Source: an uncultured delta proteobacterium
GTDB taxonomy: Bacteria > Desulfobacterota > Syntrophobacteria > BM002
DNA length: 64,000 bases
Reading direction: 5' to 3'
NCBI GenBank assembly: GCA_963712115.1
Contig: CAVQGX010000018.1
Span: 32,001 to 96,000 of the forward strand
Within the stretch, counting starts at the first letter, position 1; each line of letters begins with the position of its first letter. Shown in pieces: positions 9,049 through 41,185 of this stretch. Made by a program: the position numbers and the translations under genes. The notes beneath the pieces were generated by a model. That model worked only from the letters and a program-made list of their open reading frames with translations, had not been told where the DNA came from and did no database searches.

Positions 9049-9070
9049 AAACCGGTGGCTTTTATTGGAA

Positions 9071-23659: not shown

Positions 23660-23733
23660 TCGGTCAAAGTATTATGAGTATTTCTCTGTAATGATATACA
23701 GACATAGAGCGAACCGTCGGAAGGAGAGAAGGT

Positions 23734-24900
23734 ATGACAGCAAAAAAGCCCCGTACCATAGCCATACTTACTGGTGGCGGCGACGTGCCCGGACTGAACC
23801 CATGCATCAAAGCACTGGTCTATCGTGGTATTGAGGAAGGGTTAAGGGTACTGGGAATCCGGAGAGGATGGGCAGGTCTTTTCGAGTTTAACCCTGACCA
23901 CCCCGATTCCATGAAAAAAAATATTATGGAGTTGGAGAAGGGGACAGTTCGCACCATAGACCGCTCCGGAGGTACCTATCTCCACACCTCGAGAACCAAT
24001 CCGGGAAGAGTCAAATACGAAAACGTCCCTGAGTTTCTCAAAGACCAGGCGAAGGAAAGTGAACTTAATGACTTTACCGAGCACGTGCTGAGCAACCTGA
24101 AACATCTAGGCATTGATGTATTAATTCCCATTGGAGGGGATGACACGCTCAGTTATGGAGAGCGTCTTCACGAAGAGGGCTTCCCCGTGGTGGCAATCCC
24201 TAAAACCATGGACAACGACGTCCATGGAACCGACTATTGTATTGGTTTTTCCACCGCGGTAACAAGGAGTGTCAATTTCATCCATTCTTTGCGCACCTCT
24301 ACCGGTTCCCATGAGCGCATCGCTGTTATAGAGCTCTTTGGCCGCTACTGTGGTGAAACTTCTCTGATCTCAGCGTATCTAGCGAGTGCTGACCGGGCCA
24401 TAATCTCTGAAGTTCCTTTTGACCCTGAGAGGCTCGCCCGTTTGATCATGGAGGACAAGCAGGCCAATCCCAGCAATTATGCCATGCTCACTATCAGTGA
24501 GGGTGCGCGCATGATCAGCGGCGACATGGTACAGTATGGAGAGGCCGACGCCTATGGTCACCGCAAACTTGGCGGGATTGGTATGATGACTGGTGAGGTT
24601 CTGAAGAAATTAACCGGGCAAAACATTATTTTCCAACAGCTCTCGTACCTAATGCGGAGTGGCGCCCCGGATTCCCTTGACCTGATGGTGGCAGTCAACT
24701 TTGCTAACATGGCCATCGACCTAGTTCTCAAAAAAGTGAGTGGCCGCATGGTCTCCTTGACCCAGGGAGTATACACGGATGTGTCCATGAGCGTCATTAC
24801 GAGCGGACAGAAAAGGGTTGATGTCAGAGAGCTATATGATGCGGAGCAATATCGGCCAAAGGTCCGCCACGTGATGGGAAAACCGATGTTTCTTTATTAG
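23734..24900 (+). CDS. pfkA: 6-phosphofructokinase (PfkA family, probably PPi-dependent)
   Basis: [22 protein letters not shown] and PKTMDND (the Asp/Lys pair typical of PPi-type enzymes). Confidence 0.92.
24879..24896 (+). repeat. attL core AAAACCGATGTTTCTTTA
   Basis: Identical to 39934-39951; encodes the pfk C-terminus KPMFL(Y). Confidence 0.92.
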
Positions 24901-26054
24901 ATCTCAGTTCGCCCAACAATTCCTACACACTTAACTGCCGTCCCCTCTGCTGGGTGCGTATAGGGTGCGGAAAGGTGCAAGTTATCTAGTTCGTCCACCT
25001 GGTTTTTATGCTCCCCTGGCATCCAGTGAGCGTACTTGTCCAAAGTGATACTCAACTGCATGGTGGCCCAGCTGCTTACTCACGTCAACGATGTTGTCAC
25101 CTTTGGCGATCCGCAGGGTGGCGTAGGTGTGGCGCAGGTCGTGAAACCTGATAGGTCGGGGTGAGATGTCTTGGAGTTTTCTCTGAAGGATGAAGTTGTA
25201 GTTTAGCCTGTTACCTGTTTCATCGGCGAATATCAGCCCGGAAATGCTTGCAACCTTGCGATGCTTCCTCAGGCCCTTGAGTGCTTCCACGGTTGCAGGA
25301 GTGAGATCGACCGTGCGAGTCTTCTTGTTCTTTGGAGGCCCGGTCCGATCCAAGCGGTAGTCATAAGCTCTTACTTACCTCGAGGGTCCTGTTGTTCAAA
25401 GTCGATGTCGGACCATTCAAGTGCAAGTACCTCGCCCAATCTCAAGCCGGTTCTGACTGCTAGCAAATAGGCTGTAGAAAGCTCAATTTCAAGCCCTGCT
25501 GCGTTTTCCAGCATTTGCTGTACCTCGGTAGCACTCAATGGATCGATGCTCGTTTCAGCCTGCCAGTTCCGCAATATTTCCGTGGTTCTCTGGCAGGGTT
25601 CTGATACTGATAATTTCATCCTCAATCGCATTTTCAAAGATACCGCTAAGCACTGCTAGAATTACTTGAGTTCCAGGCCGGAGAGTAGTCCCTTGCCTTT
25701 GAGATGTTCCGATAAAGTGCTTAACGTGTTTCCGTTTAATCTCATCGAGTCTTTTGCTGCCAAAATGAGGCTCAATGTGCAATCTGAAAACCTCCTTGTA
25801 TTTCATGCAGAGTGCTTTACAGCCTGCTCTCTGAGCGGAGAATCGAGCCATTGCTTGCCGTATTTGGCGACCGTCGGACGTTGATCCCTAACCATGCCCA
25901 TATCGCCAGCTGCAAGGCGCTCTCTTATCCTCCTTGCTACGTTGTTGGCAGTGCGCTTGTCGCCTATCTTCTTGCTCCGACGCCTGCCTTTGTGGTGGAT
26001 GAACACCCACCACTCCCCTGAATCTTTGACTTTTTCTCTAACGTTTACAGCCAT
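24897..26054 (-). pseudogene. int: Tyrosine integrase, full length but split by >=4 frameshifts as assembled
   Basis: Fragments: MAVNVREK arm domain; HIEPHFG..RLDEI; RTGLRLGEVLALEWSDIDF; RFHDLRHTYAT; LGH; then shifted SITLDKYAHW (catalytic Tyr) to TAA at 24897. Confidence 0.88.
24955..24968. promoter_or_regulatory. Putative integrase arm-type site TGCGTATAGGGYGC
   Basis: Repeated at 39847-39860 near the other end; both are followed by aggtrcaa..gtccacct. Confidence 0.6.
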
Positions 26055-26191
26055 CTTCAATCACTCTCCTTTCGTGCTCCGGGTGTTGCTCTCACCTATT
26101 CCCAGGTCATAACCAGCTTCGTTCGCTATTGTGTTCTCACTTGTGTTCTCACTTGTGTTCCTAATTTTCACAGGTCATAACCTACCTTGAA

Positions 26192-26418
26192 CTAGTCTGT
26201 TTCGGGATCCCGATTTGCTACTTTACTCCTTTCAGTTTCTTCCTTCAGCGTTTGACAGTGGCCTATAATTTCCTCTGCAGCCTTGACAAGCATCTGTCCT
26301 GCATCGATAAAAAAGAACTCCCCGCTGTTGTTCAGGTCTCCAGGATCCATGTTTTTGAGAAATTTCCCTATACCTTCCACTTTTTCAGCACACCCTAAAA
26401 GATCCTCGTAAATCATTG
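26192..26418 (-). CDS. Hypothetical element protein
   Basis: GGAGGAG RBS, MIYEDLLGCAEK..., overlapping the upstream stop. Confidence 0.55.
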
Positions 26419-26667
26419 GCTCTCCTCCTCTTTGGCCGGTTTCTGGCCGTTGCCAAGCAGCATGTTCTCGAACTGCGTCAACGTTTCTCCCACTTCCAAA
26501 AGTGATTCGCCCATACCCCACACAATATCACCGCCGTGTTTCGCTATTCTGTACTTCTCGAAATCGGAGCTCATAATCGCCGCCCATACGAAGTAGAGCT
26601 TTCCCATTTGTGGGCGAACCTCCTTCTCCCAAAAGCATTTTGCCTGTTCTACTCTTTCTTCATTCAT
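26413..26667 (-). CDS. Hypothetical element protein
   Basis: 84 aa, translationally coupled to neighbours. Confidence 0.6.
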   Translation of the reverse strand: MNEERVEQAKCFWEKEVRPQMGKLYFVWAAIMSSDFEKYRIAKHGGDIVWGMGESLLEVGETLTQFENMLLGNGQKPAKEEESQ

Positions 26668-26947
26668 CTGCTCTCACCTCCTCCCCGGTGGAGGCCTCCT
26701 CTTTGGCCTCAGCTTCCAGGATTTCAACCATTTGTTTGAAATGGAATAAGGTGTTGTTGTAGTTGGCCGTGATTTTGTCGAGTATTCTGTGTAGACCACG
26801 GCAGGCTTCAGTAAATCGGTTTCCATCTTCGCTTGCCTCCCCTGCTAGACCTATAGAACTACTAAGGGCAAGCAGGTTATCGCATTGTTCTTTCCAGACG
26901 AAGATTTGCTGGTGATACAACCTCAGGGCTTCTTCTTTAGTCATCAT
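26660..26947 (-). CDS. Hypothetical element protein
   Basis: 95 aa, AAGGAG RBS. Confidence 0.65.
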   Translation of the reverse strand: MMTKEEALRLYHQQIFVWKEQCDNLLALSSSIGLAGEASEDGNRFTEACRGLHRILDKITANYNNTLFHFKQMVEILEAEAKEEASTGEEVRADE

Positions 26948-27507
26948 AGGGTCACTCCTTTCACCCCTGAAACTCCCCTACCTGGTGCCGTGAGCCGCCG
27001 TAGGATCGACGATCGCCGAATTTAGGTACTTGGGCACGTCCCAGGATCCAGAAACGAAAAAACCCCCACCCCAGCCACGGCCAGAGTGAGGATGAACTGG
27101 TTTTGCGCGAGTTCTTCCCAGGCGCAGACGCACAGGCCCCCAGTGCCTCACGGCAAGGAACTCGGGAAACTGGTTATTTAAGTCTGCGCGGTTCATAGCT
27201 CTGCCTTTCGGGAAATTGGTTGACGTATATACTTTTAGTTTTAGTATATTGAAGTCAATGTCAAACATACGAATGCACGAAGCTCTTGCAACACCCAGAG
27301 GTGATTTGAGTTTGCAAACGAGAAATGCTACAAGCGCAAACTAGCAAAGAGATAGGAAATCTCGCCGGCGTATATCTCATGAAGTAGAAACAATCTCCTG
27401 AAAACCATTCGCATCTAGAGAAGTTGGAGAAGTCCTAAGAAATATGACTGACATCGAAATTCGTAGAAGGATTCTCACTGCCCGCTCGATGACCAATATG
27501 ACATGCA

Positions 27508-27837
27508 TCAAGAAAACAAATCCTCAAATAACATCAGGATCCCCAACTCATCAGCCACAGTCTTAACGCCCCGGGGCCCCTCATTTACCTTCACCGGACT
27601 GTTCCTCCTGCCAATCTCGAAATCGCCGGTACTTCGCCGGATAGAAAATGCACCATAAAAAAATCCAGTAAGGCTCGAAATCCTCTTCTCAGCACCCTTG
27701 ATGTGGCGGTATCTGCATTTTTTGCAACTCCATCCAGGCCAGCTCCGTGCCACAGCATGGTCGAGACAACGGGTATAAAGCGGACAGGCAAGATTCCGAT
27801 ACCGGTTGCCAGTAACTCTCCGAGGACGACGTTCCAT
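27508..27837 (-). CDS. Small Cys-motif (zinc-binding) phage-type protein
   Basis: CPLYTRCLDHAV...W..WSCKKC; AGGAGG RBS before MERRPRR. Confidence 0.6.
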   Translation of the reverse strand: MERRPRRVTGNRYRNLACPLYTRCLDHAVARSWPGWSCKKCRYRHIKGAEKRISSLTGFFYGAFSIRRSTGDFEIGRRNSPVKVNEGPRGVKTVADELGILMLFEDLFS

Positions 27838-28061
27838 TGACCGAGTTGGCCTCCTGCTGGTAAACTGAAAAGGCCAGCTGGTCAATTTTTCTCTTAACTA
27901 AGCCAGGAGATGCACGCTCCTGGCTTTTCAACTTTAGATTCCACCCCAAATGTTACCAGGGGGGGGTGCCCTGGGTATAGGGTCAGAAGTGAATGGGCGT
28001 TTCACGCATGTTTCACGCAACAAATAGACCTTGTGGAACAACAAACAGGCATTATAGAGCA

Positions 28062-28262
28062 TCAGTTATCTGGGCGTAGAGCCCGGTTCAAAACCTTCTC
28101 ATTCTCCAGCAGCCACTTCGCCACGTTTGGCAAATAATACAGGCGGACTTGATTGGTCACGCGAATAAAGGGAAACTGCTTTTCCGTCCTCAGCCGGGAT
28201 AGTGTTACCTTCTTCAAGCTCAACAGGTCCAACAGTGTGTCCTCTGTACAGAAATTCTCCAT
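28062..28262 (-). CDS. Excisionase-like winged-HTH protein
   Basis: LLDLLSLKKVTLSRLR....PFIRV....RLY....V.KWL pattern. Confidence 0.7.
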   Translation of the reverse strand: MENFCTEDTLLDLLSLKKVTLSRLRTEKQFPFIRVTNQVRLYYLPNVAKWLLENEKVLNRALRPDN

Positions 28263-28590
28263 TTTCAGTGCTTCTTCGTTCACGGCGCAAAACCTCCTCT
28301 TCAATGAAACTTTCAAGCCAATAGCAGCGAACTAGGTCGCCACGCTGATTTAGTTCTCTCCACCAGGCCAGTTTCCTCTCCTGACTCATAACCAAAAACA
28401 ATTGCACACACCTGGAGCAAAGAAACCCCTCGGCGTCCTGCGCCGGCTTGTAATCCGTAGCCTCTCCACAAAACCCACAGCGGGCGCCGCTGACTATGTC
28501 TCTCTCATCCTGGCGCATGCAATCCTCAGATTCGCAAAGCCACGGCCATTCCGGGCATTCAGGGCAATCCTGACAGGATCTCAATTGCAT
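28099..28590 (-). CDS. Cys-rich hypothetical protein (C-terminal extent uncertain)
   Basis: CQDCPEC, CGFC, CSRC; GGAGG RBS. Confidence 0.55.
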   Translation of the reverse strand: MQLRSCQDCPECPEWPWLCESEDCMRQDERDIVSGARCGFCGEATDYKPAQDAEGFLCSRCVQLFLVMSQERKLAWWRELNQRGDLVRCYWLESFIEEEVLRRERRSTENGEFLYRGHTVGPVELEEGNTIPAEDGKAVSLYSRDQSSPPVLFAKRGEVAAGE

Positions 28591-28610
28591 ACTTCCTCCT
28601 TTGACTTAGC

Positions 28611-28762
28611 TTAGGTCCAGCCTTTTGGACTAGGGACCGGATTGATCACGATGATCGGCGTGATCTCAAAACCACAGCCAGGGCATAGTGTTTTAACGCC
28701 GGTTGGATTTGTTTCGAAGATCTGATTGCACGCGGGACAACGCACAACACTACCTCTTTCAA
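28611..28762 (-). CDS. Small zinc-ribbon protein (start uncertain)
   Basis: CPACNQ...CPGCG. Confidence 0.45.
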
Positions 28763-29073
28763 TGTTTTGTAGTTCCCTGAGATTCCGCCTGCAGAGCCAA
28801 GTAGGCCTCCAGGAAGCCAAAGACGAAACTGGCGAAGAAAACTTGGTCAATTAGCTCACCGTGAGCCTTCGAAAGATGATCAGCAAGTGACTTGGCGGCA
28901 CTGGGTAATGCTTCACGAAGTTTTTGGGTCAGATCAGTCGCGGTTTGGAAATGCGCCATGATGGGGTCTTGCTGGCTGACTACCTCAAAAATATCTAAAC
29001 GTCGAGTAGCTAAAACTTCAAAGGCCTTTGTAACTACATCTTCGCTCAACGTCTCATAGTTCAAGGCTTGCAT
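28759..29073 (-). CDS. Hypothetical element protein
   Basis: 104-aa helical ORF immediately after the giant gene. Confidence 0.65.
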   Translation of the reverse strand: MQALNYETLSEDVVTKAFEVLATRRLDIFEVVSQQDPIMAHFQTATDLTQKLREALPSAAKSLADHLSKAHGELIDQVFFASFVFGFLEAYLALQAESQGTTKH

Positions 29074-29082
29074 CGCTTCACC

Positions 29083-32000
29083 TCATTGCGCGCGGCGCCG
29101 CGCCTTTGTTGGATAGCTCAAATAAGTTTGCCGGTACCAGCGCACTGCAGAGTCGTATAGTTGACGCTGCGCCGGCGTGAGTCCTCTTATAAACCGATAG
29201 CGCAGTTTCTTCGGCATGAAGGCTAATGGGTGGCTGATTTTAATGGCCTGCCGCAAAGCCTTATAATTCCCGCCCAGGTCAAAATATTGCTTTTTGTACT
29301 TCTCAGCGAGCTTCTGATCACCGTATTTGAGTGCCTGCTTGTAGTAGTAAAGTGCATTGCTCCTGGCTGTGGGTGTGCCAATAGAAATGTCTTGACCTTG
29401 CTCCCGGAGGTATTCACCTGCCAAATGACGGATTGCATAGTACGAGGCTTCACCCGGATCCGTGCTGTAGGTGATCAGGTTAGTAAGGTCGTGAATCAGG
29501 CCCCTAGTTGGCTTACTCGCCAAGTGGCGGTAGGGCATATCCAGAGAAAGAGTCCGGGCGATATGTTCAGCGCGATCACGGATCGGTCTTGGCCGTGATA
29601 TGTCAGGCCAGAGTGATACTCCCGTTAGGATCTCGAGCAAACTGCGTTCCAGGGGTCTGGCGCCCAGAAGCACCCTGCGCAGAGGAGGCAGATCGAAAAA
29701 CTCACCCATGTCTGTGGGCATCCAACCCATTTCCTTTAGCTTTTGTGCCGGCGTACGCTCTTTGGTGATCACGTCCATGATATCGTGGGGGAGCTCACCG
29801 GCACCGAACCACTCGAGGGCATCGGATAGAGCGCCCTGGAATCTGAGCGTGATCAGGCTACCATCCTCACGGCGACCGAGGATCAGGTGCAGTTGACGCC
29901 TGCCTGCCTGTCTCAGTTTTCTTTCTTCATCAGGCCAGAACGTAGCATTGTAAAGCATGGCTGCGGCATAGAGCATACTGGCCTTGACAGCGAGTTTAGT
30001 GCCCTTCCAAGCTATTTTCTTGGCACCGACTCCCGCTATCCTGGCCTTACGGCCTTTTACCTCTCCTTCATGCGGCAGGTTTTTGATGAGCCGGACATAC
30101 CTGGGAGCGTTGATCTCCATCCACGACCAAAAATAGATTAAGTGCTTGCGAAGCCATTGACCCGCCTCGGACACTGCTCCGTAATCACCTATCAGTTCCC
30201 GGGCGAGTTTTGCGGCTTTGTCGTCTCTATTCTTGATAGCGTCTATTTCGCTCTTTTTTGAAGCTCCATAGAGATTCTTGCCCTTGGCGAGCTCTGTCTT
30301 GAAATGACGGTAGGCAGCGAGTCGAAGGACGTTCTCGCGCCACATTGTAAAGTCTTTGATGTTCTTCCACCTCGCGCGGATCCAGTTCGGCTCTTCGCCG
30401 GCAATCAACTTGAAAAGGCCTTCTTCAGTGATATCCGGGATCTCGCGTACAGTAAAACCGGATCCAACGACACCCTTGCGGAGTGCCGTACGCAACTCGG
30501 GTGTCATCTCCTTGCCTTTAAGCTGCCAGGCCCATAAATCATTGGCTGCGTCTTTGACATATTTAAGAATCTTTGGGTCATAGGCCAGCGTGATATCCAA
30601 GTCGCCGCTAAGGTTGTTGATGTTGTATTTCACCACCCGGAATGGATTAAGGAGGATCCACTGTTTCCAGGAAGTACCGATCGCTCTTGATGCCTTTGCA
30701 AACGGCCCCTGATCCGGGAAATCCCGGAAGTTGTCTAGTGTATCGGCTAATCTTGTTGGAATGACCCATTGAGTTTTTGGTCGTCTTGCCAGCACACGTC
30801 GAACGTCCGGATCTTCTAAGGATTTTTCACCAGCTTGCACCCGTTCGAGCACTTTGTCAGTAATGCTATTTACAAAATAAAATCTAGGGTGCCTGTCGGG
30901 GCTCCATGGTCGATAATCCTCCGGTTTCATGTGTTCCCACGTTTTGAACTTATTTCCCAATTCCTCTTTAACCATTGCATTTCTGCCAGCAATGGCCTTG
31001 AAAATCGTAGCGGCCTGCATGGATCCAGGGCCGCCGTCTTTGACAAGCCACCCAAGGAATTTAAACCAATTCTCATGATTGGATCCCGGCCTGGTCCACA
31101 TTTCAGGATCTTCGGGGTAATCCTCCTTGTCAGCTAGGTACTGCTCCCAGGAGTCAGCCAGGTCCTCGATAACATCGTCATAGCCGGGACCATCGAGCTC
31201 GCCATCGTAGGCCATCTTTGCGAGCTTATTGTTGGACATGGCAATGCGTTGCTTATACCCGCGAAAAGGATCAACGTAGTCTTCATCCCCAGGTACCGGA
31301 GTGCTACCGTCTTTACGAGCAGGATTGGCCTGCTTGATTACTTCACGGTAATTCCACGCTTTGGCCTCGGACTCCAACTCTCCCCTGATATCGGCTTCGG
31401 CTTGAAGCTTGTCCAGGGTATGAACGGTTTCCAACTGCGCGAGTCCCTGGGCGATCACAACAAATTCAGACTGGAGATATTCAGTGTTGAAGTCTTTGAC
31501 TGATCCTACCCTCGCGATCTGCCAGCCTTTCCTCGAGAGCCTTACATCAGCGGTGGAAGTTCCAGGAGTCAACCGCCCCATGGCCATGTATTCAAGCACC
31601 TGATGATGGTAATAGGCATCGTTTTCTAAAACTTCTTCATGGAGTAGGTTGTTTTCAACGAGTTCCTCGCGTAGCCGGCGCATAAGCTGCTGGCGAGTCT
31701 CCAATGCCGTGCGAATGTATTCGCTTTGCGCTGCGGCTCCTTTGAATTTGCCGAGGTCGGCTATCACTTCCGCACGGTTCTTGTAACCAAAAGGAAGAAC
31801 TTCTTTCTCCTCGAACATGCCGCGATCGATATCACGCAGGAGATCCGGCAGGATGATATTGCGAGTGAAGACGTCATATTCCCAATTGGCAAGATTGCCG
31901 GTAATTTTTTTAAGTGCATGCAGCGCGGTAGCCTGAGAGTATTCGGGTACGGTTAAGTACTGTCTCAAGATATCGATTAAGCGTCCGTCTGTTTTCGGAT

Positions 32001-33669
32001 CCAGCTTGGGGAAAAGGCGCGAGATGCTGTGGTAAGCTTTGGTCACAGACTGGCGCAGCTGCATACTCACATTGGGCCTGGGGATCCCCTTAGCTTCATT
32101 CCAGCGACGCTCAACTTCTTCACTGGAACTTTTAAGATCGATACCCTTGGGAGGGGGTCTTACTGGTGCTTTTTTCCTTTTAAGTAACTCGTCGAGCTTT
32201 AGGCCTCCGGGAGGGATCATTTTCGAGATTTGGCCTTTAATGCTGGCCTTCTTTTTCTGGCCTCGCTCAATAGAGATGGCACCGGTTTCACTTCTTAAGA
32301 TTTGCTTTCCTTCGCGGAATAATCTCAAGGCGAGATGCCTAACCTTAGTCCAAACGTCATCCAAAGCTTGTTTTAGCTGCTGATTGAAAGTTTGATATTT
32401 AGTGTGTCCCTGGCGAATCAAATGCTTACTAACGGTCAACAAGTCAGCATATACCCTGGGTCCTTCCTTCATTTGAGTTGAAAAGGATCCTCGCTCGCTT
32501 CGTAGGGATTTGACCACTCGGCCTCGTGCCTCTTCATAGTCTTGCAAGGTTTGCAGGGCATCCCGGTAACCTTTGACCTGCCTTCTATTGAAATCAGGAT
32601 AACGCTCTTGGATCTTCGCATTGCGCTCTCGAACACTTTTTAACTGCAGAATGTCAAGGTCCTCTGTCTTTGCTTCAGGAATTTGCGGTGCTGGCCTTTT
32701 CCCTTTCGCTAGCCTCAGTTCATCTACACCATAGAGCTCCGGTGACTCTTTGTCTTCAACCAATATGTGCCTGGATTGTGGCCCTATTTCCTCGGTCGGC
32801 GCCACGATTACTCCCGGGCCGTCCGGCGTCTCGACTCGATCACCAACAGCGAAAAGTGGCTTTCCCACGGCTTCGGGCTTTGACGCCCTGACAGCTTCCA
32901 TTTCGATCTCTGCGGCGTTTTCTAGACCCTCAAGGGTTTCCGGATAAACGGATGGTTCGACGTCAGGTTCAGATTGTTGTTTCTCTGTGGTTTCGCTAGG
33001 TTCTACGTCGATTGCTTCGCCTTCGGCACGTCCCTCCAATATTTCATCTAATTCTTTGCCAACGAAAGGATGGCCCTCTTCGACCTCCCTTTCGAGATCC
33101 TCAACTGTTCTTGCTTCTGGGACTGGCTGCGCTGGCGCTTCAGCTTCAGGTGCTATCGCTTCTGCGCCTCGATGGATAACCAAACCACCACCGGCAGCTA
33201 TGCCGCCCAGGGTGCCGCCGATCGCTCCGGAATAAGCAGCACGTTTGGTTGTTTCCGCAAACTGATCAAAGAATGTCTCGACCTTTTCAACTGCACTTTT
33301 ATCCGGATTCTCCGCGAAGATAGTAGTTGCTGCGTCTGGATATTCCTGAATGAATTCGGTAATGGCCTCACGCCCCATGGCTTCGCCCAGAGCTTTCAGC
33401 TTGCCGATCAGGACCTTTTGCGGCTTCCAGAACTTTAGTGCCCCTTCAAGACCTACCTGCTCGAGCGGGACTTGCATCACAGCATTGGCAAAAGATGATG
33501 CAAAAGCACGCTTGGGATCCACTCCTTGAGATACGAGATTTTCGTACTGGCCACCCATGATCTGAGCGCCGATCATGGACATGCTTGCGATGCTTCCAGC
33601 TCGCCGTGCAATTTGCTCTGCCACTTCTTTGGTGATCTCGCGCCGTGCGAGCTTTGCACCTATCTTCAA
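29083..33669 (-). CDS. Giant phage internal-virion/ejection-like or large polyvalent protein (N-terminus extends to ~34310 through frameshifts)
   Basis: 1528-aa open frame; Gly/Ala-rich hydrophobic helices near the N-terminus; C-terminal RLAAY...AAKLARELIGDY...WLRKHLIYFWSW reminiscent of LPD38/podovirus internal proteins. The family call is an inference. Confidence 0.65.
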   Translation of the reverse strand: MKIGAKLARREITKEVAEQIARRAGSIASMSMIGAQIMGGQYENLVSQGVDPKRAFASSFANAVMQVPLEQVGLEGALKFWKPQKVLIGKLKALGEAMGREAITEFIQEYPDAATTIFAENPDKSAVEKVETFFDQFAETTKRAAYSGAIGGTLGGIAAGGGLVIHRGAEAIAPEAEAPAQPVPEARTVEDLEREVEEGHPFVGKELDEILEGRAEGEAIDVEPSETTEKQQSEPDVEPSVYPETLEGLENAAEIEMEAVRASKPEAVGKPLFAVGDRVETPDGPGVIVAPTEEIGPQSRHILVEDKESPELYGVDELRLAKGKRPAPQIPEAKTEDLDILQLKSVRERNAKIQERYPDFNRRQVKGYRDALQTLQDYEEARGRVVKSLRSERGSFSTQMKEGPRVYADLLTVSKHLIRQGHTKYQTFNQQLKQALDDVWTKVRHLALRLFREGKQILRSETGAISIERGQKKKASIKGQISKMIPPGGLKLDELLKRKKAPVRPPPKGIDLKSSSEEVERRWNEAKGIPRPNVSMQLRQSVTKAYHSISRLFPKLDPKTDGRLIDILRQYLTVPEYSQATALHALKKITGNLANWEYDVFTRNIILPDLLRDIDRGMFEEKEVLPFGYKNRAEVIADLGKFKGAAAQSEYIRTALETRQQLMRRLREELVENNLLHEEVLENDAYYHHQVLEYMAMGRLTPGTSTADVRLSRKGWQIARVGSVKDFNTEYLQSEFVVIAQGLAQLETVHTLDKLQAEADIRGELESEAKAWNYREVIKQANPARKDGSTPVPGDEDYVDPFRGYKQRIAMSNNKLAKMAYDGELDGPGYDDVIEDLADSWEQYLADKEDYPEDPEMWTRPGSNHENWFKFLGWLVKDGGPGSMQAATIFKAIAGRNAMVKEELGNKFKTWEHMKPEDYRPWSPDRHPRFYFVNSITDKVLERVQAGEKSLEDPDVRRVLARRPKTQWVIPTRLADTLDNFRDFPDQGPFAKASRAIGTSWKQWILLNPFRVVKYNINNLSGDLDITLAYDPKILKYVKDAANDLWAWQLKGKEMTPELRTALRKGVVGSGFTVREIPDITEEGLFKLIAGEEPNWIRARWKNIKDFTMWRENVLRLAAYRHFKTELAKGKNLYGASKKSEIDAIKNRDDKAAKLARELIGDYGAVSEAGQWLRKHLIYFWSWMEINAPRYVRLIKNLPHEGEVKGRKARIAGVGAKKIAWKGTKLAVKASMLYAAAMLYNATFWPDEERKLRQAGRRQLHLILGRREDGSLITLRFQGALSDALEWFGAGELPHDIMDVITKERTPAQKLKEMGWMPTDMGEFFDLPPLRRVLLGARPLERSLLEILTGVSLWPDISRPRPIRDRAEHIARTLSLDMPYRHLASKPTRGLIHDLTNLITYSTDPGEASYYAIRHLAGEYLREQGQDISIGTPTARSNALYYYKQALKYGDQKLAEKYKKQYFDLGGNYKALRQAIKISHPLAFMPKKLRYRFIRGLTPAQRQLYDSAVRWYRQTYLSYPTKARRRAQ

Positions 33670-34319
33670 GCCTTTTTTGGTCAGGCCGACTGCGGTAAGA
33701 AATGAAGCTATTTGCGTTCCATATTGAGGGGCTGACCTTAATTACGTCCTCCCAAAAGCCAGCTGATTTCCCTTCGTATTCAGGCGAAACTGCCAGTTCA
33801 GGCCGTTCCGCGATCGACTGGACGGCATCTGCCATTCTGTTTGAGCGTTTCTCCTTGAAGTTCCAGATTCATCCATTCAGGGCGATGAGTCATTAAGCCC
33901 CCTCCAGGGCGAGCCCCTGGTGCTAATTCCTCTGCCCATCTCTGCCAGTTCACCGTATGCTCGTAAGTGGTGCTTCAATGCCTTTCAGAGCGCTTCGGGC
34001 AACATCTTTAGTCCCTTGCCAGAGTGCTCCACCGAGTCGGCCAAGGGAATATTCCGGCCATCTTCTTCGGCAGCCACTATTCCTTGCTTGTGGACCTCGC
34101 AAATAGCGAGACAGAAGGCTTTGTTCCTCCTATTCGACTTGAGTCTTCAAGGTCATCTAGCGCTATTTCCGAGCCCAGTGGACTTCAGAATTGATTTTGC
34201 AACCTCTGAGGTAGCTCTAGTCCTGGAGGTTAATTTCAAGATGTCGATCTCAAGAGTAAGCATCCTGATGATCGGTATGGTCCTTTTTGGATTGTTTCTT
34301 TCGTTAACACCCGTAGCCA

Positions 34320-35006
34320 CCTTCTCCCTTAACTCCCCATCCCCACTCATCGGTAGCTGTCTTTATCCTACCTTCTTCAACCGGCATTAGACCGAGCAGG
34401 CTCAAGGCAAGATCCAAATAGGGACTGTATTCGGGTTGGGTCCTCAACCATTCTTGAAATGTTGCCGTAAGGCTCTTGTTCTTCGATGCCGCGCTGCATC
34501 TCACCAACTTGCCGCCATTACCTGTGGCAGTTCCAAGGTGGCAAAGCGTTCATAGGCATCGTATTTCTCAGCACCGATCATGCTTTCTTCTGCGCTTCGT
34601 GTCTTTTTAAGATCAAGCTGTGATTTGACCATATCGCTTGAATGTTGAAGGCCCATGCTTGCCATTTTGCGATCCGAGCAGGGATTCTTCTTCTTCCCAT
34701 GCAGGTGCTAAAAATTCGCGTCTTGCACCGAGGAAGTCTTTGACCCGATCTTTCCAGTCTTCAGGGCCGCCGAATTTTAGTCCCCCCAGCTGTTTAAAGG
34801 CTTTTGTTTGCAAAGCACTAGGGCCGCTGGTTCCAGGTAATTTACCGCTCATAAGGTGTTGCACCCTTGCCGATCAAAGGCGTGAGGTAGCCAGCAAACT
34901 CTTTTGACAACTCTCGCTGTTCTTTTGTCCATCGTTTTATGTCTTTGTCGGTTTTGGATTTGCCGTGCTGCTCCTCGTACCAACCTGTTAGACTTCCTCC
35001 GAACAT
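34320..35006 (-). pseudogene. Frameshifted ~230-aa gene, small ejection-protein-like
   Basis: AAGGAGG RBS, MFGGSLTGW...; fragments 34613-34864 and 34304-34507 join by frameshifts. Confidence 0.45.
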
Positions 35007-35180
35007 GGCTATTCCTCCTTTATTTCTAGGATTTCTCTTGCTTTCGACGAAATGCGTTCTGACATTGGCTTCTCGCCCTTAAGGATTCGAGAAACGAACG
35101 ACTGCGAAACTGCGAAGTTGTGCAAATTTATTGATGCTCATATCCCGACGTTTGAGCTCACTTCTTTAGTTGCTCTGCAG

Positions 35181-35378
35181 TCACCAGCAAACCCGTCTCT
35201 GGTTTTCGCCGGCAACTTGGTCGTAACTTTCCTCGTTGGTGGCTGTCAGCTCTTCACCGGGATCCGGATGCTCTTCTTCCTTTTCTCTCTGGGATTTGCA
35301 AGAAATGCAGCCACGTCTTTTTCGCGGTATGTTAAAAAGTGCGGGTGTAGCTCCTGAACTCGTCCAGTAATCGTCCAT
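35181..35378 (-). CDS. Hypothetical element protein (possibly frameshifted)
   Basis: Overlapping ORF fragments between 35006 and 35403. Confidence 0.35.
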   Translation of the reverse strand: MDDYWTSSGATPALFNIPRKRRGCISCKSQREKEEEHPDPGEELTATNEESYDQVAGENQRRVCW

Positions 35379-35402
35379 TCATTGTCACCCTCGACTATTC
35401 GC

Positions 35403-35819
35403 TCAGTTAAAGCGCGAAGAATTTCCACCTTCTTTTGGTGTCGGTTTGTTCTGTTGCAGGTGGGCACTGGCCTGGTTTTGCCGTAGCTCGAGTATAGGAA
35501 GAGTAAGGCCGCACTCAAAAATGGACTGGCGCAAGATAGAAATTTGCTGTCGGCATTCCTCAACGTCGGCGTTATCCACCTCGCCTAGAATTTGGGCAGC
35601 CAAAATGTCGGGGAAGGAGAGTTGAGCGGTTTCAAGTTTTTTCTGCATCTCAATCATTTTGTTTTGCACCTGGAAAGTTGCAGCGGCAATTTGGGTCGCT
35701 TTCTCATCAATCTGTTTGACCGCTTGGTCGGCTTTTTGGAATAGTTGGTCGATAATTAATTGCATAGTTTTCCTCTCCTCCCAATCTCTCTGCATTTCGT
35801 TCGTAGTAACATTCGCCAT
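35403..35819 (-). CDS. Coiled-coil hypothetical protein
   Basis: 138 aa, Q/E/A-rich heptads. Confidence 0.6.
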   Translation of the reverse strand: MANVTTNEMQRDWEERKTMQLIIDQLFQKADQAVKQIDEKATQIAAATFQVQNKMIEMQKKLETAQLSFPDILAAQILGEVDNADVEECRQQISILRQSIFECGLTLPILELRQNQASAHLQQNKPTPKEGGNSSRFN

Positions 35820-35841
35820 CGAGCACTTCTTATGACCTAAA

Positions 35842-36771
35842 TTAAAAATCGATATCTAGCACCTTAGGAAGGCTATCTTCCACATCAGGTATTTGTCCAT
35901 ATAAGGCATTCGTATCCGTCTCCTGGGGCTCGTATTTTTCGTTCATTGATTTTTGCATCTGCTGAAACCTATTCCGGGCAATAGCTTTTACGTATCCGGT
36001 CACGTTTTGCTTGTTAAAAGAGAATTTCTTGTCTGCTGCTCTTTCTAAAGTAACCTCAAGCGCAGCGCACAGGCACTCAGCACAAGTTTCACCGCATAGA
36101 GCTATCAACTCGTTTAAGATCGTCTGTACTCGTCGACTGCTAATGGTTTGGGTTTTGTTCTCAAGTCGGGCTTTATCGAGAAAAGAGATTATTAGCTTTT
36201 GGGTTTTTTCTGATTGCTCACAAAAATCAGGTAGGGAAATGAGAAGACCGTTTAGGTCTTCGAGTTTTCCACAAGATATATTCTTTATAATTTTTTTACA
36301 TTCTTGTTTGTGTCCAGCAACCGTTACCTTACCGTTACTTTCATCGTTACTTTCATCCCCCAACCTTCCTTGATAAGTAGGCCAATTTGCTATGGTTATT
36401 AGCGTAAATGAACCGTTACTTTTAAGGCGTTGTTCGTGAGGCGATTGTGAGTTCATTGTGAGGACGGTCTTTTCGATTACAATCATTCCCTGGGACTCAA
36501 ACCACTTCAGAATGACGCGAATAGTTTTTTTGTTCGGTTTCTTTTTGACATGTCTTTGGTAGTGGCTTACCCCTTCAGCAATCTTATCCATAGAGGTCAG
36601 TACCTGGCCTGTCTTTACAATAACAATGCCTGTTTTCCCCATAGATACTCGGCACCCCTTATGATTCGCCTTCCAAAGCAACCAAGTCCACACACGGTGA
36701 TAAAGTGGGGGCATTCTCCAGACCATAGAGTCCTCTGTTTTTCTCCAACTTTTGACGTAACCTCTATGCAT
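35842..36771 (-). CDS. Phage replication initiator / replisome organiser-like protein
   Basis: MHRGYVKSWRK...W.WLLWKANH...GQVLTS...FTLITIANWPTYQ; next to DnaB; internal iteron-like repeats. Confidence 0.75.
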   Translation of the reverse strand: MHRGYVKSWRKTEDSMVWRMPPLYHRVWTWLLWKANHKGCRVSMGKTGIVIVKTGQVLTSMDKIAEGVSHYQRHVKKKPNKKTIRVILKWFESQGMIVIEKTVLTMNSQSPHEQRLKSNGSFTLITIANWPTYQGRLGDESNDESNGKVTVAGHKQECKKIIKNISCGKLEDLNGLLISLPDFCEQSEKTQKLIISFLDKARLENKTQTISSRRVQTILNELIALCGETCAECLCAALEVTLERAADKKFSFNKQNVTGYVKAIARNRFQQMQKSMNEKYEPQETDTNALYGQIPDVEDSLPKVLDIDF

Positions 36772-36991
36772 CCTCATCACCTCCAAACCGGGCGGCATAG
36801 AGATCTTGGATTTGCTCAATCATCTCGTTTTCATCACCATCAAAAGTAATCTGGCCGTTTTCGTCAGCGAGCTCACAGAGAAGTCGAAAGAGCTTGACCC
36901 CTTCTTCACCCATTTCACGGCGAATTCGCTTCACCAGCTTTTTGGGGATTACAACATCACCCTGCAGTTTCTTGATCTGTAATTTACTCAT
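36764..36991 (-). CDS. Hypothetical element protein
   Basis: Start overlaps the dnaB end; MSKLQIKK... Confidence 0.55.
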   Translation of the reverse strand: MSKLQIKKLQGDVVIPKKLVKRIRREMGEEGVKLFRLLCELADENGQITFDGDENEMIEQIQDLYAARFGGDEDA

Positions 36992-38327
36992 GTGCTCGAT
37001 CTTCAAACCTTGTATATTGAGCTTGCCAAACAAGGCTAACTGTACCTGTAGGTCCTTTCCGATTTTTCGCTATGTTCACTTCAGCTAGGCCGGCATGTCC
37101 TTTCGTGCATTCGCTTTTTTTGCCCTTGGCACAAAACTGGCAGTAATGTTGGTCTTGATAGAGAAGTAATACCAAGTCTGCATCTTGTTCAATATCCCCA
37201 GATTCACGCAGATCTGAAAGAAGAGGTCGCTTATTTTCTCGAGACTCGCATGAACGATTAAGCTGGCTCAGAAGCAGTACCGGCACTTTTAACTCACGCG
37301 CTAACGCCTTCATGGTTCTGGTCGTTTCCCCTATTTCCAGATACCTCTGTTTTTCTCGCCTGTCCGATCTGATCAATTGCAAGTAATCAATCGTGACCAG
37401 GGCAAGTCCTTTCATCCTCGCCTTTGCTTGACGGGCGAGAAATCGTATCTGTTGAGCGGTTAATGATGGTGAATCGTTGGCAAGGATGGGGAGTTCCGCC
37501 AGGTCGCCGGCTGCGTGCACAAGTCGAGTCCAGTCCTCCGCCTTGAGGTGCCCACTCTGGATCAACTGCGAGGGTATCTTGGCTCGGCTGCTAAGGGATC
37601 TATCGGCCAACGAATCAGCATCCATTTCCAGAGTGAAGATCGCCACGGGGCCTGCTTGCGCAACGTGTTCGGCTATTTGCTGAGCTATGGCGCTTTTGCC
37701 CATGCTCGGACGGCCTGCCAGCACGATAAGATCTCCATCTTGCAAACCGTTAGTCAATTTATTTAAGCCAACAAAAGGAGTAGGAGCGCCGCTTACATAA
37801 TTAGGGTGCTTGGTGCGAGCCTCTATCCGACGGATTCCGTCTTTCACAAGAGTACGCATGTCTGTGAAATGGGTGTTGGTCCCACAATATTCGACGTTTG
37901 TCAGTTCTGACGAAATTCGAGCTATGACCTCTTCGATCGGCTGCTCTTCATCAGTAACCATCTCCATGGCACCATGAAGCAGAGAGATTGTTGATCGTCG
38001 TACTGCTTTCTCCTTGATGATCCTGGCATAGTTTGCGAGTGATTCACTGGTAAGGCTGGGAGTGAGATCCATTAGGTGGGCGATGTAAGAGGCTCCTCCT
38101 ACATCGTCAAGTTTTTTCCTCTCACGCAGAGCATTGTTGAGGCTTACAGAGTCAATCGGTTCGCCTTGGGCGTCTAACCCCAGCATAGTGCTGAATATGA
38201 CACGGTGAGCTCCCCGGTAGAACCATTCTGGCCGGATCTCAACATCAGGGGGAATGGCGCCTGAAAGGAGGATTCCGCCAATCAGTGAAGATTCTGCGTC
38301 AAGATTATGTGGTGGGACTCTCTGCAT
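36984..38327 (-). CDS. dnaB: Replicative DNA helicase DnaB (element-encoded)
   Basis: PPHNLDAE, AGRPSMGKS, IDYLQL, LSQLNR, LSDLRESGDIEQDAD, AKNRKGPTG. Confidence 0.93.
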   Translation of the reverse strand: MQRVPPHNLDAESSLIGGILLSGAIPPDVEIRPEWFYRGAHRVIFSTMLGLDAQGEPIDSVSLNNALRERKKLDDVGGASYIAHLMDLTPSLTSESLANYARIIKEKAVRRSTISLLHGAMEMVTDEEQPIEEVIARISSELTNVEYCGTNTHFTDMRTLVKDGIRRIEARTKHPNYVSGAPTPFVGLNKLTNGLQDGDLIVLAGRPSMGKSAIAQQIAEHVAQAGPVAIFTLEMDADSLADRSLSSRAKIPSQLIQSGHLKAEDWTRLVHAAGDLAELPILANDSPSLTAQQIRFLARQAKARMKGLALVTIDYLQLIRSDRREKQRYLEIGETTRTMKALARELKVPVLLLSQLNRSCESRENKRPLLSDLRESGDIEQDADLVLLLYQDQHYCQFCAKGKKSECTKGHAGLAEVNIAKNRKGPTGTVSLVWQAQYTRFEDRAHE

Positions 38328-38457
38328 TGCTTGTTTCCTCGTCGGTCTTGGAGAGACGGTCAATAATCTCGTCGATCTCTCGTAGTTGAGTGTTCACTTC
38401 ATCGCGGAGATCCAATAAAGCCGCACGTTTTCCGCGCCAAAAGTCGATATCGCTCAC
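38305..38457 (-). CDS. 50-aa coiled-coil hypothetical protein (not in the ORF track)
   Basis: GTG start, SDIDFWRGKRAALLDLRDEVNTQLREIDEII...; fills the gap between xis and dnaB. Confidence 0.5.
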   Translation of the reverse strand: MSDIDFWRGKRAALLDLRDEVNTQLREIDEIIDRLSKTDEETSNAESPTT

Positions 38458-38480
38458 AGCATTCCCTTCGAGTTAAGGGT

Positions 38481-38729
38481 TTAAAGATCCGAAAGAACGT
38501 CTTCGACAATTGCATCAACCTGGCTGCCGTTCACGCGGAACTTCTCCAGCCATGCATCAATATCGCCATAGGCCACCAGAATGGTTCCCGAAGACAAGCG
38601 GAAGTGGGAGAGCCCATCTTTGAGCCAATCACGGAAGGTGCGGATACTCACGCCAGCATACTTGGCTACCGGACCGATCTTGGCGTATCCACGAAGGTCT
38701 GATGTCCTATCTGTGCACCCCAGATTCAT
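38481..38729 (-). CDS. Excisionase/AlpA-like HTH protein
   Basis: VAKYAGVSIRTFRDWLKDGL...IDAWLE. Confidence 0.8.
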   Translation of the reverse strand: MNLGCTDRTSDLRGYAKIGPVAKYAGVSIRTFRDWLKDGLSHFRLSSGTILVAYGDIDAWLEKFRVNGSQVDAIVEDVLSDL

Positions 38730-38904
38730 TTTGACAATCCTGCCTATTAGCCCAGCCGTGGTCGCGCCAATTTATGCCCTGCTCCTGCAAATGACGCTGG
38801 ACAGCCTGTCGAACTTCCACAGATACTGATGAAAGATTTCGCCTGGCAGCTTCGCGCAACGCCGTCACCAAGCTCTCGTCAGCTTTGACCGAAATAAGTG
38901 CCAT
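38707..38904 (-). CDS. Ribbon-helix-helix (CopG/Arc-like) regulator
   Basis: ISVKADESLVTALREAARRNLSSVSVEVRQAV; AGGAGG RBS. Confidence 0.72.
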   Translation of the reverse strand: MALISVKADESLVTALREAARRNLSSVSVEVRQAVQRHLQEQGINWRDHGWANRQDCQNESGVHR

Positions 38905-39065
38905 AGTCTTTAGCCTCCTAAAAACATCTGCGCGGTCATTGTGCCTCTTTGGGAAGTTGGTTTGTGCTTGGAACTATCTTAAATTATTTTGAGTATGACG
39001 ATACACCACCACGTCATAGCCTTGCAAAATGGGCAAATTTAAAAAATTTCTGAACAGAGTTGTTT

Positions 39066-39713
39066 CTAAGTGGAAGATTTTTTGGCCGGATCTGGGTGGA
39101 GGCATTCAGATGGTAAGGATCGTGAAACGGCTCGTATCTGATCTCCAAGTTTTTGACCAGACTCCTCATGGTCAATTCTTTCCAAAAAAGCATTGGCAAA
39201 ACGGAAAAAAGGACCCTTATAGTCAGTGCTGTCTGGAGGACGACTCAATCCTGCCTTTTTGCCAGTCGTTAAAACGTAGATCTTAATAAGGTCTTCAATC
39301 AGAGCTTTTAAGGCGATTTTTGGTGCCCCTCTTTTATCATGGGGAAGATTGTCGAGAGCAAAGTCCGCTGCATTTTTGAGACGATGTACGTCCACTTCAA
39401 TTGCCTCCAAATCAGAAACGCTCAATTTCATAGCAGCCCGAGCCGTGGGACTTAACCCCTTGAAGATATCAACTAATTTTTGACTTTGACGACTTACTTT
39501 TCGAAGATCGTCTCTCACAGGAGCAAGGCGTTCTTTGGTATCAAAAGTTTGCTTAGCCGAGAGATACTTGCGTGCAGCGTCATTGAGTTTTTTCTTGAGT
39601 TCAGCAGTATATGGAACTCCGAGCACCTGTGCTATTTTGTTTAGGTCTTTTTTGGTAAAAGGATCATTCGGGTAATCAGTAATCCCAATAAAGCGTGCTC
39701 TTTTTGAAGTCAT
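39066..39713 (-). CDS. Hypothetical element protein (first gene after the structured RNA)
   Basis: 215-aa intact ORF. Confidence 0.7.
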   Translation of the reverse strand: MTSKRARFIGITDYPNDPFTKKDLNKIAQVLGVPYTAELKKKLNDAARKYLSAKQTFDTKERLAPVRDDLRKVSRQSQKLVDIFKGLSPTARAAMKLSVSDLEAIEVDVHRLKNAADFALDNLPHDKRGAPKIALKALIEDLIKIYVLTTGKKAGLSRPPDSTDYKGPFFRFANAFLERIDHEESGQKLGDQIRAVSRSLPSECLHPDPAKKSST

Positions 39714-39742
39714 CGCTGTCCCTTGCGAATTATCCCAGAGGG

Positions 39743-39799
39743 AGTGTGGCCAGGCGCTGGGACTGAGCGCTCTTCGGATCCGGAATCCTAGGCCACACT
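39743..39799 (-). ncRNA. Candidate structured RNA (three-way junction) of the integrated element
   Basis: AGUGUGGCC/GGCCACACU outer stem enclosing GGAU/AUCC and GCGCU/AGCGC hairpins linked by GAAGA; starts just after a sigma70-like promoter. Confidence 0.55.
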
Positions 39800-39802
39800 A
39801 TT

Positions 39803-39831
39803 TTTGTAGCATTTTACCAACCACTTTGCAA
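39803..39831 (-). promoter_or_regulatory. Sigma70-like promoter of the element
   Basis: TTGCAA-N17-TACAAA. Confidence 0.5.
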
Positions 39832-39933
39832 AACATGGAAAAAGGTTGCGTATAGGGCGCAAAACAGGTACAATTTTGTCCACCTTTTTAGGGATTGATC
39901 CTTGTGATTTCAATTACTTACGTGATCTGGGTT

Positions 39934-39951
39934 AAAACCGATGTTTCTTTA
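39934..39951 (+). repeat. attR core AAAACCGATGTTTCTTTA (displaced original pfk 3' end)
   Basis: Identical to 24879-24896 and followed by CTAA (TAC TAA = Tyr-stop). Confidence 0.92.
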
Positions 39952-40057
39952 CTAACCTCAGGTAGCAAAGACGGGAGGGTAAACCAAGGGCAGTCACAAA
40001 CAGAACGTCAATATTCAAGCACAATGTGGCGCAAGGCTTAAGCAACTGTGTTGCTTG

Positions 40058-41185
<1,128 letters not shown>

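Follow-up and report, generated by a model that had tools for sequence, protein, structure and literature searches.

Phage satellites reportedly resize capsids, redirect terminases or carry capsid genes of their own. Passages of de Sousa et al. (2023, PMC10085698) put their median sizes at ~10 kb for P4-like satellites, 9.5 kb for phage-inducible chromosomal islands (PICI) and 17.7 kb for PICI-like elements (PLE), and give psu, delta, sid, alpA, epsilon and alpha together with an integrase as the core genes of the P4-like type. It is held that phages package their polyvalent proteins in the capsid and inject them, and ~40% of the polyvalent proteins in the original survey belong to conjugative elements, as stated in parts of that survey (Iyer, Burroughs, Anand, de Souza and Aravind 2017, PMC5512222). 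The locus described here shares traits with both systems. It lies in a stretch of 64,000 nucleotides (the window) from contig CAVQGX010000018.1 of an uncultured delta proteobacterium and consists of an element of 15,076 bp at positions 24879-39954 with an integrase pseudogene, a replication module and a giant gene. With not quite even confidence, the element is tentatively interpreted as a now defunct copy from a satellite-like class of small integrative elements that derive from phages and are non-autonomous; an element of this class would bring its own giant injected protein to helper particles. This interpretation is favoured because of a comparable element in a Bacillota metagenome-assembled genome (MAG; locus L037), the juxtaposition of replication genes and a giant gene across phyla, a TerS-like gene in one relative (L030) and a layout like that of PICI.

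The element resembles PICI and P4-like satellites in its size range, its terminal integrase, a small helix-turn-helix (HTH) excisionase-like regulator, replication genes of its own and the lack of a full virion module. Unlike them, it has no homologue of Psu, Sid or Delta, of capsid-morphogenesis proteins or of TerS detectable with Pfam and PHROGs, and it replicates with DnaB and a DnaD-like initiator instead of Pri-Rep or the alpha primase-helicase. Furthermore, its integrase is dead, and two genes occupy 39% of its length (~5.9 of 15.08 kb), namely a giant gene of virion type and, as its partner, the broken gene that precedes it (the pre-giant gene); this share agrees with the ~40% given in a preliminary description of this DNA. 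From the P4-like core set, only the broken integrase and the HTH_17 excisionase-like gene were recovered, with no other PHROGs match, and from the set of PICI and capsid-forming PICI (cfPICI) no TerS, capsid, portal or protease match was obtained in Pfam or PHROGs. The generic layout of a satellite is present with 15.1 kb, att (attachment site) repeats, an integrase in the form of a pseudogene, DnaB and initiator, and without a complete virion module; a functional integrase and thus the means of excision are missing, as the gene is in at least four pieces. A full-text literature search, judged by titles and the beginnings of abstracts, returned no satellite with an injected giant or ejection protein, which is no proof that none has been published.

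Boundaries and gene content of the element

The main features are the following (coordinates of the window):

24879-24899, attL, left copy of the 21-nt direct repeat, comprising the last codons and the stop of pfk
24900-26060, minus strand, tyrosine integrase pseudogene with pieces of PF14659 and PF00589 and colinear pieces of phrog_1
24952-24968, left inner 17-nt repeat, from a direct-repeat search
29083-33669, minus strand, giant open reading frame (ORF) of 1528 aa, supported by homologs and by an AlphaFold2 model of its C-terminal module
33670-33835, minus strand, probably what remains of the 5' end of the giant gene, out of frame
34616-35015, minus strand, frameshifted 5' part of the pre-giant gene, from a family of 167-308-aa proteins without assigned function
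35842-36819, minus strand, replication initiator or DnaD-like helicase loader, 325 aa (phrog_2514, 1.9e-21)
36984-38363, minus strand, DnaB-family replicative helicase, 459 aa, ORF intact (PF03796, 6.3e-90; PF00772, 4.5e-24; TIGR00665, 2.3e-131)
39844-39860, right partner of the inner 17-nt repeat, from the same search
39934-39954, attR, right copy of the 21-nt direct repeat

Both att sites named in the preliminary description are present. The flanking repeat copies agree at 20 of 21 positions; for the 18 kb under study, our own arithmetic gives a chance expectation of ~0.002 such pairs. A phosphofructokinase gene, pfk, of 388 aa (23734-24900, plus strand; PF00365, 2.7e-66) ends with the left copy, and the right copy would encode the same pfk residues. 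As a tRNA scan of the window found none, the target is the 3' end of pfk and not a tRNA, and because both copies encode the terminal residues of pfk, the element integrated there and rebuilt the gene. A second pair of direct repeats, 17-mers containing GCGTATAGGG with 88% identity, lies 53-90 bp inside each end; these may be putative arm-type sites of the integrase.

Every assignable gene of the element is on the minus strand, in line with the unidirectional gene order described before, and the DnaB and Rep genes named there were both confirmed by profile matches. The initiator has 39.5% identity to genes of Paenibacillus phages, and a 12-nt tandem repeat with 3.1 copies inside its gene (36322-36357) may represent putative iterons or an origin. 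None of the 27 ORFs of the element matched capsid, portal, terminase, tail or lysis families (Pfam and PHROGs, E<=0.01). The absence of capsid, terminase and tail genes noted previously was thus upheld, and no match was obtained to any of the genes that make up a full prophage of the tailed type (those for large terminase, portal, major capsid protein, tail and lysis). The unassigned coding space, ~3 kb of ORFs of up to 163 aa and ~1.7 kb of fragments, is too small for a virion module. An NCBIfam scan returned nothing beyond the families already known, and the whole element had no match to phages by megablast.

The giant gene and its relatives

The giant gene announced in the preliminary description corresponds to the 1528-aa ORF. 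It is composed of an N-terminal domain (residues ~30-150), a Gly-rich hydrophobic stretch, an acidic and Pro-rich linker and an all-helical C-terminal module (~500-1528). No family was matched in Pfam, PHROGs or NCBIfam, and no PDB sequence at E<=1 (phmmer). In its size, N-terminal domain, C-terminal module and best fold matches, it is similar to large polyvalent proteins; unlike those, it carries no effector domain or large polyvalent protein-associated domain (LPD) recognised by Pfam, let alone two or more, and has only two unnamed conserved regions in common with the group. It is also among the shortest, with relatives of 1233 to >4300 aa.

At E<=1e-3, 92 protein homologs were found, all of which share residues ~890-1528 and about a third ~500-1528. 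The precomputed Pfam domains on these homologs are PF18760, PF18763, PF18812, PF18838, PF18834, PF18798 and PF01464; rescans confirmed LPD3, LPD22, LPD23, PBECR3, SLT, InPase and ART-PolyVal, and RadC and SNF2-like domains occur among them as well. By the LPD and effector domains of its homologs, the giant is homologous to polyvalent proteins. Its N-terminal domain shows 36% identity to one of them (P0084) and is common to proteins bearing LPD22 or LPD3. When the giant was searched against INPHARED by tblastn, a single one of 50,697 records matched, with the N-terminal domain only, and this record is an archaeal podo-like virus.

No Pfam family covers the C-terminal module of ~1000 aa. The window copy has kept 84 of 90 highly conserved columns, the range in the family being 78-99%. 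Its AlphaFold2 model is all-helical, with a mean predicted local distance difference test score (pLDDT) of 68.8 and a predicted template-modelling score (pTM) of 0.55, and it matched 79 viral structure models in BFVD at E<=1e-3. The named ones were mostly C-terminal pieces of tailed-phage giants, labelled 'large polyvalent protein associated domain'; Cellulophaga phage phi19:3 and Escherichia phage PTXU04 are among the phages whose giants were matched. The module was found in none of the 72,556 plasmids of PLSDB. Given these viral structure matches and the absence from plasmids, it is a phage-specific, unannotated anchor of giant virion-type proteins. By its position and by analogy to known phage polyvalent proteins, it would mediate encapsidation or ejection, which makes it a good candidate for the encapsidation or ejection anchor of polyvalent proteins. 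Regardless of the satellite idea, a widespread unannotated module is defined here by 39 genome loci and the viral models. Antisense frames within the giant gene (29500-31600, plus strand) also gave tblastn matches across many loci; they mirror the conserved sense frame and do not mark genes.

An ejection module of the podovirus type, as proposed in the preliminary description, has to be reduced to an analogy, since no match to solved ejection proteins was obtained. Those giants that stand in a phage context follow internal-virion or virion structural genes and precede tail-fibre, holin or endolysin genes, similar to the core and ejection proteins of podoviruses (T7 gp14-16 and N4 virion RNA polymerase, vRNAP, type). 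Some relatives (P0004, for example) carry an N-terminal SLT lytic transglycosylase domain, and such a domain is also part of T7 gp16. Unlike podovirus core and ejection proteins, the window giant has no counterpart among PDB sequences and no significant fold match. With the model of the C-terminal module, Foldseek gave no PDB hit at E<=1e-3 (best E 0.15; N4 gp50 E 0.88), and a relation to a T7 gp16-like core protein was found neither by sequence (phmmer) nor by fold (Foldseek). The resemblance is positional and analogical.

A genome scan with the giant gave 39 loci. Most of them are in MAGs assigned to Nitrospirae/Nitrospira, sulfate-reducing deltaproteobacterial groups (Desulfo- lineages, Geobacter, Syntrophus), Gemmatimonadetes, Anaerolineales, Bacteroidetes, Denitrovibrio, Alphaproteobacteria, Synergistaceae and Bacillota. 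The module forms the C-terminus of the matched ORF wherever it was mapped. Gene contexts were surveyed with ORFs of at least 130 aa from 27 of the 39 loci, using Pfam and/or PHROGs. The distance from the end of the replication genes to the giant downstream is 1.4-2.7 kb in L016, L028, L030 and L037, and 2.2 kb in the window. An integrase directly follows the giant in L022 and L025, and a tRNA is located 0.5-4.8 kb after it in L003, L007 and L016. One locus (L027) stems from a cultured isolate, Sphingopyxis flava R11H (NZ_FUYP01000003.1), where the giant has at least 4283 aa and its C-terminal module 31% identity; this isolate could be an experimental system for the giant.

Of all the loci, L037 (Bacillota MAG, JAJYMS010000134.1, locus coordinates 490-16997) qualifies best as a candidate live member of the class proposed here. 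It is bounded by a 64-nt repeat (63/64) covering the 3' end of a tRNA-Ser(tga), with copies 16,444 bp apart. Between them are genes for an integrase of 386 aa, which is intact (phrog_1, 2.4e-83), for a primase-helicase, for a minor head protein of the MuF-like kind (phrog_4311, 9.5e-24) and for a giant of 1382 aa whose C-terminal module has 34% identity (E 9e-83), besides small ORFs. No capsid or terminase match was found in it with Pfam or PHROGs. The two elements therefore have in common that they are bounded by att sites, carry a tyrosine integrase, one or more replication genes and the same C-terminal module, and are devoid of capsid and terminase matches. They differ in their target (tRNA-Ser against pfk), in replication (primase-helicase against DnaB and DnaD-like initiator), in the gene before the giant (MuF-like against the P0095/P0096 family) and in the state of the integrase, which is intact in L037. 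Apart from the giant, their similarity is limited to a weak integrase match.

In L030 (Desulfuromonadaceae MAG, 55-14000), a TerS-like gene (PF03592, 2.9e-14) has a DnaD-like initiator and a primase-helicase as its neighbours; two ORFs without assigned function come next, and then a giant of 1960 aa with InPase and ART-PolyVal domains. Host-like genes (PEP-CTERM, AMIN, TPR) begin 1.4 kb past the giant. The searches for att repeats in L003, L007, L016, L022, L025, L026, L028 and L030 gave no convincing pair within the DNA examined, and an 18/20 repeat in L016 was rejected as an att site because it is within chance expectation by our arithmetic.

An integrative element mobilised by conjugation, or an integrated plasmid, that sends its polyvalent protein through a type IV secretion system (T4SS) would suit the element's own replication module as well as the ~40% of surveyed polyvalent proteins residing in conjugative elements according to the passages cited above (PMC5512222). 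It is a very improbable explanation, however. No relaxase, T4SS or coupling-protein match was found by Pfam in 29 proteins (27 of the element, pfk and an adjacent IS110 transposase), the C-terminal module is found in viral models and in no PLSDB plasmid, and relatives of the giant adjoin MuF-like, TerS-like, holin, endolysin and tail-fibre genes.

Decay of the window copy and weighing of the explanations

The integrase gene listed in the preliminary description is broken up. Its sequence is distributed over four ORFs whose frames alternate (25803-26060, 25555-25851, 25371-25637 and 25006-25353), which cover phrog_1 positions 114-180, 190-249, 252-317 and 329-422, in that order. The PF00589 match of the last piece ends at profile position 159 of 172. 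A region with the catalytic Tyr was recognised by eye only, in yet another frame, and the C-terminal piece 24900-25079 had no Pfam match. Its reading frames imply three frameshifts at the least and probably four, so the gene is a pseudogene, and the present copy of the element would be unable to excise by itself. A perfect 12-nt tandem repeat with 2.7 copies (26129-26160), ~70-100 nt upstream of the integrase start, is possibly an operator.

The pre-giant gene is broken as well. In an exhaustive HMMER search, its 83-aa piece matched P0095 (167 aa, 2.4e-11) and P0096 (266 aa, 5e-8). Residues 29-85 of P0095 map to frame -3 (35015-34848) and residues 86-159 to frame -1 (34846-34625), with a tblastn E of 8.6e-26, and a weak third P0095-related segment was seen by tblastn in frame -2. 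The frame change at ~34847 is a single extra base outside any homopolymer, a second one probably lies near 34695, and the region is further fragmented down to 33836. Homopolymer errors were ruled out as the cause of the frameshifts, because the insertion at ~34847 is outside a homopolymer and runs of at least six are of similar density within the element (1.46 per kb) and outside it (1.14 per kb).

The two genes had been described together as a small and a giant virion-like gene. For the giant, this is consistent with its phage-type relatives; for the small gene, besides being frameshifted, 'virion-like' stays unproven, because the 16 proteins of the P0096 family have uninformative names. One of them carries PF13884, and PHROGs assigned only the unknown family phrog_3742. 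Compared with 40 loci (the 39 genome loci and L001) by tblastx, the pre-giant region had no match; the sole match at E<0.01 (window 33451-33564, L001) is inside the N-terminal domain of the giant ORF. Nothing significant was found with the pre-giant pieces by blastp against the 92 giant homologs, nor with P0095 and P0096 against the ORFs immediately upstream of the relatives' giants at E<0.5. These upstream ORFs are not similar to each other either (1e-3).

The giant itself has probably lost its native 5' end, ~190 or more N-terminal residues, to frameshifts. This is suggested by the early start of its N-terminal domain, at residue ~30 in comparison to ~193-381 in relatives and ~212 in the archaeal virus, and by only ~24 open codons upstream of its first start codon.

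The damage is unevenly distributed. Five to seven indels fall into ~2.6 kb (integrase and pre-giant region) and none into ~7 kb (giant, DnaB and initiator), where ORFs of 4.6, 1.4 and 1.0 kb are open under translation table 11. If indels fell uniformly, such unevenness would have a probability of ~1e-3 to 1e-4 by our post-hoc arithmetic. It could stem from recent decay, from selection acting on the ORFs that survive or from local problems of the assembly. Selection would be in accordance with an element immobilised by the death of its integrase, whose surviving genes (the C-terminal module of the giant, DnaB and the initiator) were co-opted by the host, for instance to exclude related phages, or which is mobilised in trans by the integrase of a related resident element. 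Besides the distribution of frameshifts, the giant's conserved positions (84/90) and the intact DnaB and initiator ORFs argue for this explanation. We nevertheless regard it as improbable, as no defence family was found (PADLOC on 18 ORFs gave only an HTH look-alike), a 4.6-kb ORF may stay open by chance if decay is recent, and the native start of the giant is probably lost.

More weight has to be given to the main rival, a deletion remnant, namely a podovirus-like temperate prophage at pfk that lost its head, tail, packaging and lysis genes by one or more internal deletions and is decaying in what is left. This is quite possible, though we rather doubt it. It is favoured by the pseudogenes, by the phage-like surroundings of the closest giants and by both ends being defined for two elements only. 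Three or more frameshifts interrupt the integrase, the reading frame of the pre-giant gene is broken as well and the giant is apparently 5'-truncated; the closest giants with a known context (L002, L004) adjoin virion and lysis genes. Other copies are visibly decaying, too: in L003 (2464-6719), an IS21 IstB gene is directly upstream of a giant shortened to 1233 aa, and in L025 (2-12664) the giant region is divided into four ORFs (2146, 349, 1317 and 340 aa). An IS110 transposase just outside attR, at a distance of 100 bp, would also be in keeping with a remnant. On the other hand, the window element has kept its two att copies as well as the inner repeats, and L037 has the same reduced gene set with clean 64-nt att repeats and an intact integrase. 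Replication genes are directly upstream of the giant in four other loci of different phyla, and such a juxtaposition is not a one-off deletion scar. The strikingly uneven indels and the conserved columns kept in the giant also speak against a remnant. If the element were merely a deletion remnant, the finding would be an ordinary one.

The preferred interpretation, a defunct satellite-like element, starts from the features of the window copy. A tyrosine integrase placed the element into the 3' end of pfk, with the last codons rebuilt. Its own replication module consists of the DnaD-like initiator with possible iterons and DnaB; it also carries small HTH- and RHH-like regulators, and a long operon ends in the giant of the phage 'large polyvalent protein' group. 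Upon induction, a functional form would excise and replicate, and a helper phage, probably podovirus-like, would supply the capsids for its DNA. The giant would join the helper particles via its conserved C-terminal module, enter the next cell alongside the DNA and act early there.

Several points weigh against this interpretation. The window copy is broken, with integrase and pre-giant gene as pseudogenes and an apparently 5'-truncated giant, so it is not an intact satellite; such pseudogenes are equally expected from a decaying prophage remnant. No helper, excision product, packaging signal or particle association of the giant is known. In six loci, virion, tail or lysis genes occur within 10 kb of the giant:

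L002, virion structural protein upstream of the giant; giant with 49% identity to that of the window
L004, endolysin and tail-fibre-assembly genes downstream of the giant; giant with 50% identity to that of the window
L006, Mtd_N/collagen tail fibre
L010, holin
L018, Phage_capsid
L029, virion structural or internal virion protein and endolysin

The closest giants, those of L002 and L004, are thus in phage-like contexts. When all frames of the element were compared with the 40 loci by tblastn, only the giant recurred, with the exception of DnaB (L026), a weakly similar initiator (L030) and weak integrase pieces (L004, L025, L037). As the giant is nearly the sole shared gene, a 'class' rests on architecture and not on gene content. 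Both boundaries are defined for L037 and the window element only. The left ends of L016, L028 and L030 are beyond the DNA examined and structural genes could be located there. Moreover, divergent structural genes can evade Pfam and PHROGs, and several ORFs adjoining giants in phage contexts are also without matches.

The preliminary description had suggested a satellite class, with the proviso that close relatives in the form of full-length prophages with structural modules would point to a deletion remnant. Such relatives were encountered in part for the giant gene (the virion and lysis contexts of L002 and L004) and not for the whole element, because no other gene of it is shared. The suggested class is in accordance with the architecture of L037 and of L016, L028 and L030; the window copy does not represent an intact satellite. 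In its widest form, the proposal would describe a satellite family of several phyla, 15-20 kb in size and composed of integrase, replication module, small virion-associated partner and giant, which loads its own giant via the C-terminal module into podovirus-like helper particles instead of remodelling or building capsids. The window element would be a dead member, L037 a live one, and L030, L016 and L028 candidates. We consider this wide form rather unlikely. If true, it would represent a new satellite strategy that parasitises the helper's internal protein cargo and not its shell, and it would extend satellites to little-studied anaerobic and environmental phyla. The remaining probability falls to explanations other than those discussed.

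Regulators, small open reading frames and surroundings

Upstream of DnaB, the element begins with the following features:

39738-39803, minus strand, stable branched hairpin of 66 nt in the leader of the 215-aa ORF (z -3.2; 0 of 200 shuffles fold as well)
39066-39713, minus strand, 215-aa ORF, first gene of the element, without assigned function
38707-38904, minus strand, ribbon-helix-helix-like ORF, 65 aa (RHH_1, E 6.4e-4; 20.0 bits vs a cut-off of 20.5)
38481-38729, minus strand, HTH_17/MerR-type excisionase-like regulator, 82 aa (Pfam, E 1.9e-4; phrog_66, 2.4e-5; TIGR01764, 5e-4)

Between the initiator and the pre-giant gene, and downstream of the giant gene, small ORFs and other minor features are found:

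35403-35819, minus strand, 138-aa ORF without assigned function, listed as coiled-coil in the preliminary description and of helical appearance by eye only
28759-29073, minus strand, 104-aa ORF with a weak DUF6809 match (E 0.0049)
28611-28850, minus strand, zinc-ribbon-like ORF, 79 aa (Zn_ribbon_4, E 1.7e-4, below cut-off; phrog_9188, E 8e-4)
28099-28590, minus strand, 163-aa ORF with a Cys-rich N-terminal half and no Pfam or PHROGs family
28062-28316, minus strand, HTH/excisionase-like ORF, 84 aa, very weak (phrog_2790, E 0.0097; phrog_25262, E 0.0021)
27508-27949, minus strand, overlapping Cys-rich ORFs of 125 and 86 aa
27062-27093, minus strand, terminator-like hairpin of 14 pairs and a T run
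26192-26947, minus strand, three small ORFs of 109, 84 and 95 aa

The structured RNA postulated in the preliminary description is represented by the 66-nt hairpin, whereas the whole 220-nt leader is not unusually stable (z -0.95) and an Rfam scan of the element, leader included, gave no match. The regulators and zinc fingers listed there (RHH, two Xis, zinc-finger ORFs) do have matches, but these are weak or sub-threshold; the HTH_17 match of the 82-aa ORF, for example, reached 22.1 bits vs a threshold of 27. The 215-aa and 138-aa ORFs, the overlapping Cys-rich ORFs and the three small ORFs had no family in Pfam, PHROGs, NCBIfam or PADLOC, and the ESM Atlas placed the 215-aa protein in unnamed clusters only. 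The 3' half of the 163-aa ORF overlaps the 84-aa ORF in a different frame. The hairpin at 27062-27093 would terminate the long operon, and an ORF overlapping it (26978-27268) is probably not a gene.

Outside the element, the window is ordinary chromosome with two-component systems, a UvrA-like ATPase, a type II secretion system (T2SS)-type ATPase and carboxylases; only host genes and no second phage region or helper were found in it. The IS110-family transposase gene (40058-41059, minus strand; PF01548, 1.5e-27; PF02371, 3.9e-18) starts ~100 bp beyond attR. Its 5' end is overlapped on the opposite strand by an sX15-like Rfam match (41012-41159, plus strand), which is sub-threshold with 31.2 bits vs a gathering score of 55 (E 0.081). 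Upstream of pfk, the region 22000-23700 is sparsely coding, and open frames of at least 120 aa cover just 24% of 22001-24000. A 1765-aa ORF (13706-19003, plus strand) combines UvrA interaction and DNA-binding domains with several ABC ATPase matches, while UvrA is normally far smaller. Finally, a 405-aa ORF (4181-5398, plus strand) consists of SfsA, with its N-terminal OB and nuclease domains, joined to a C-terminal DUF123.

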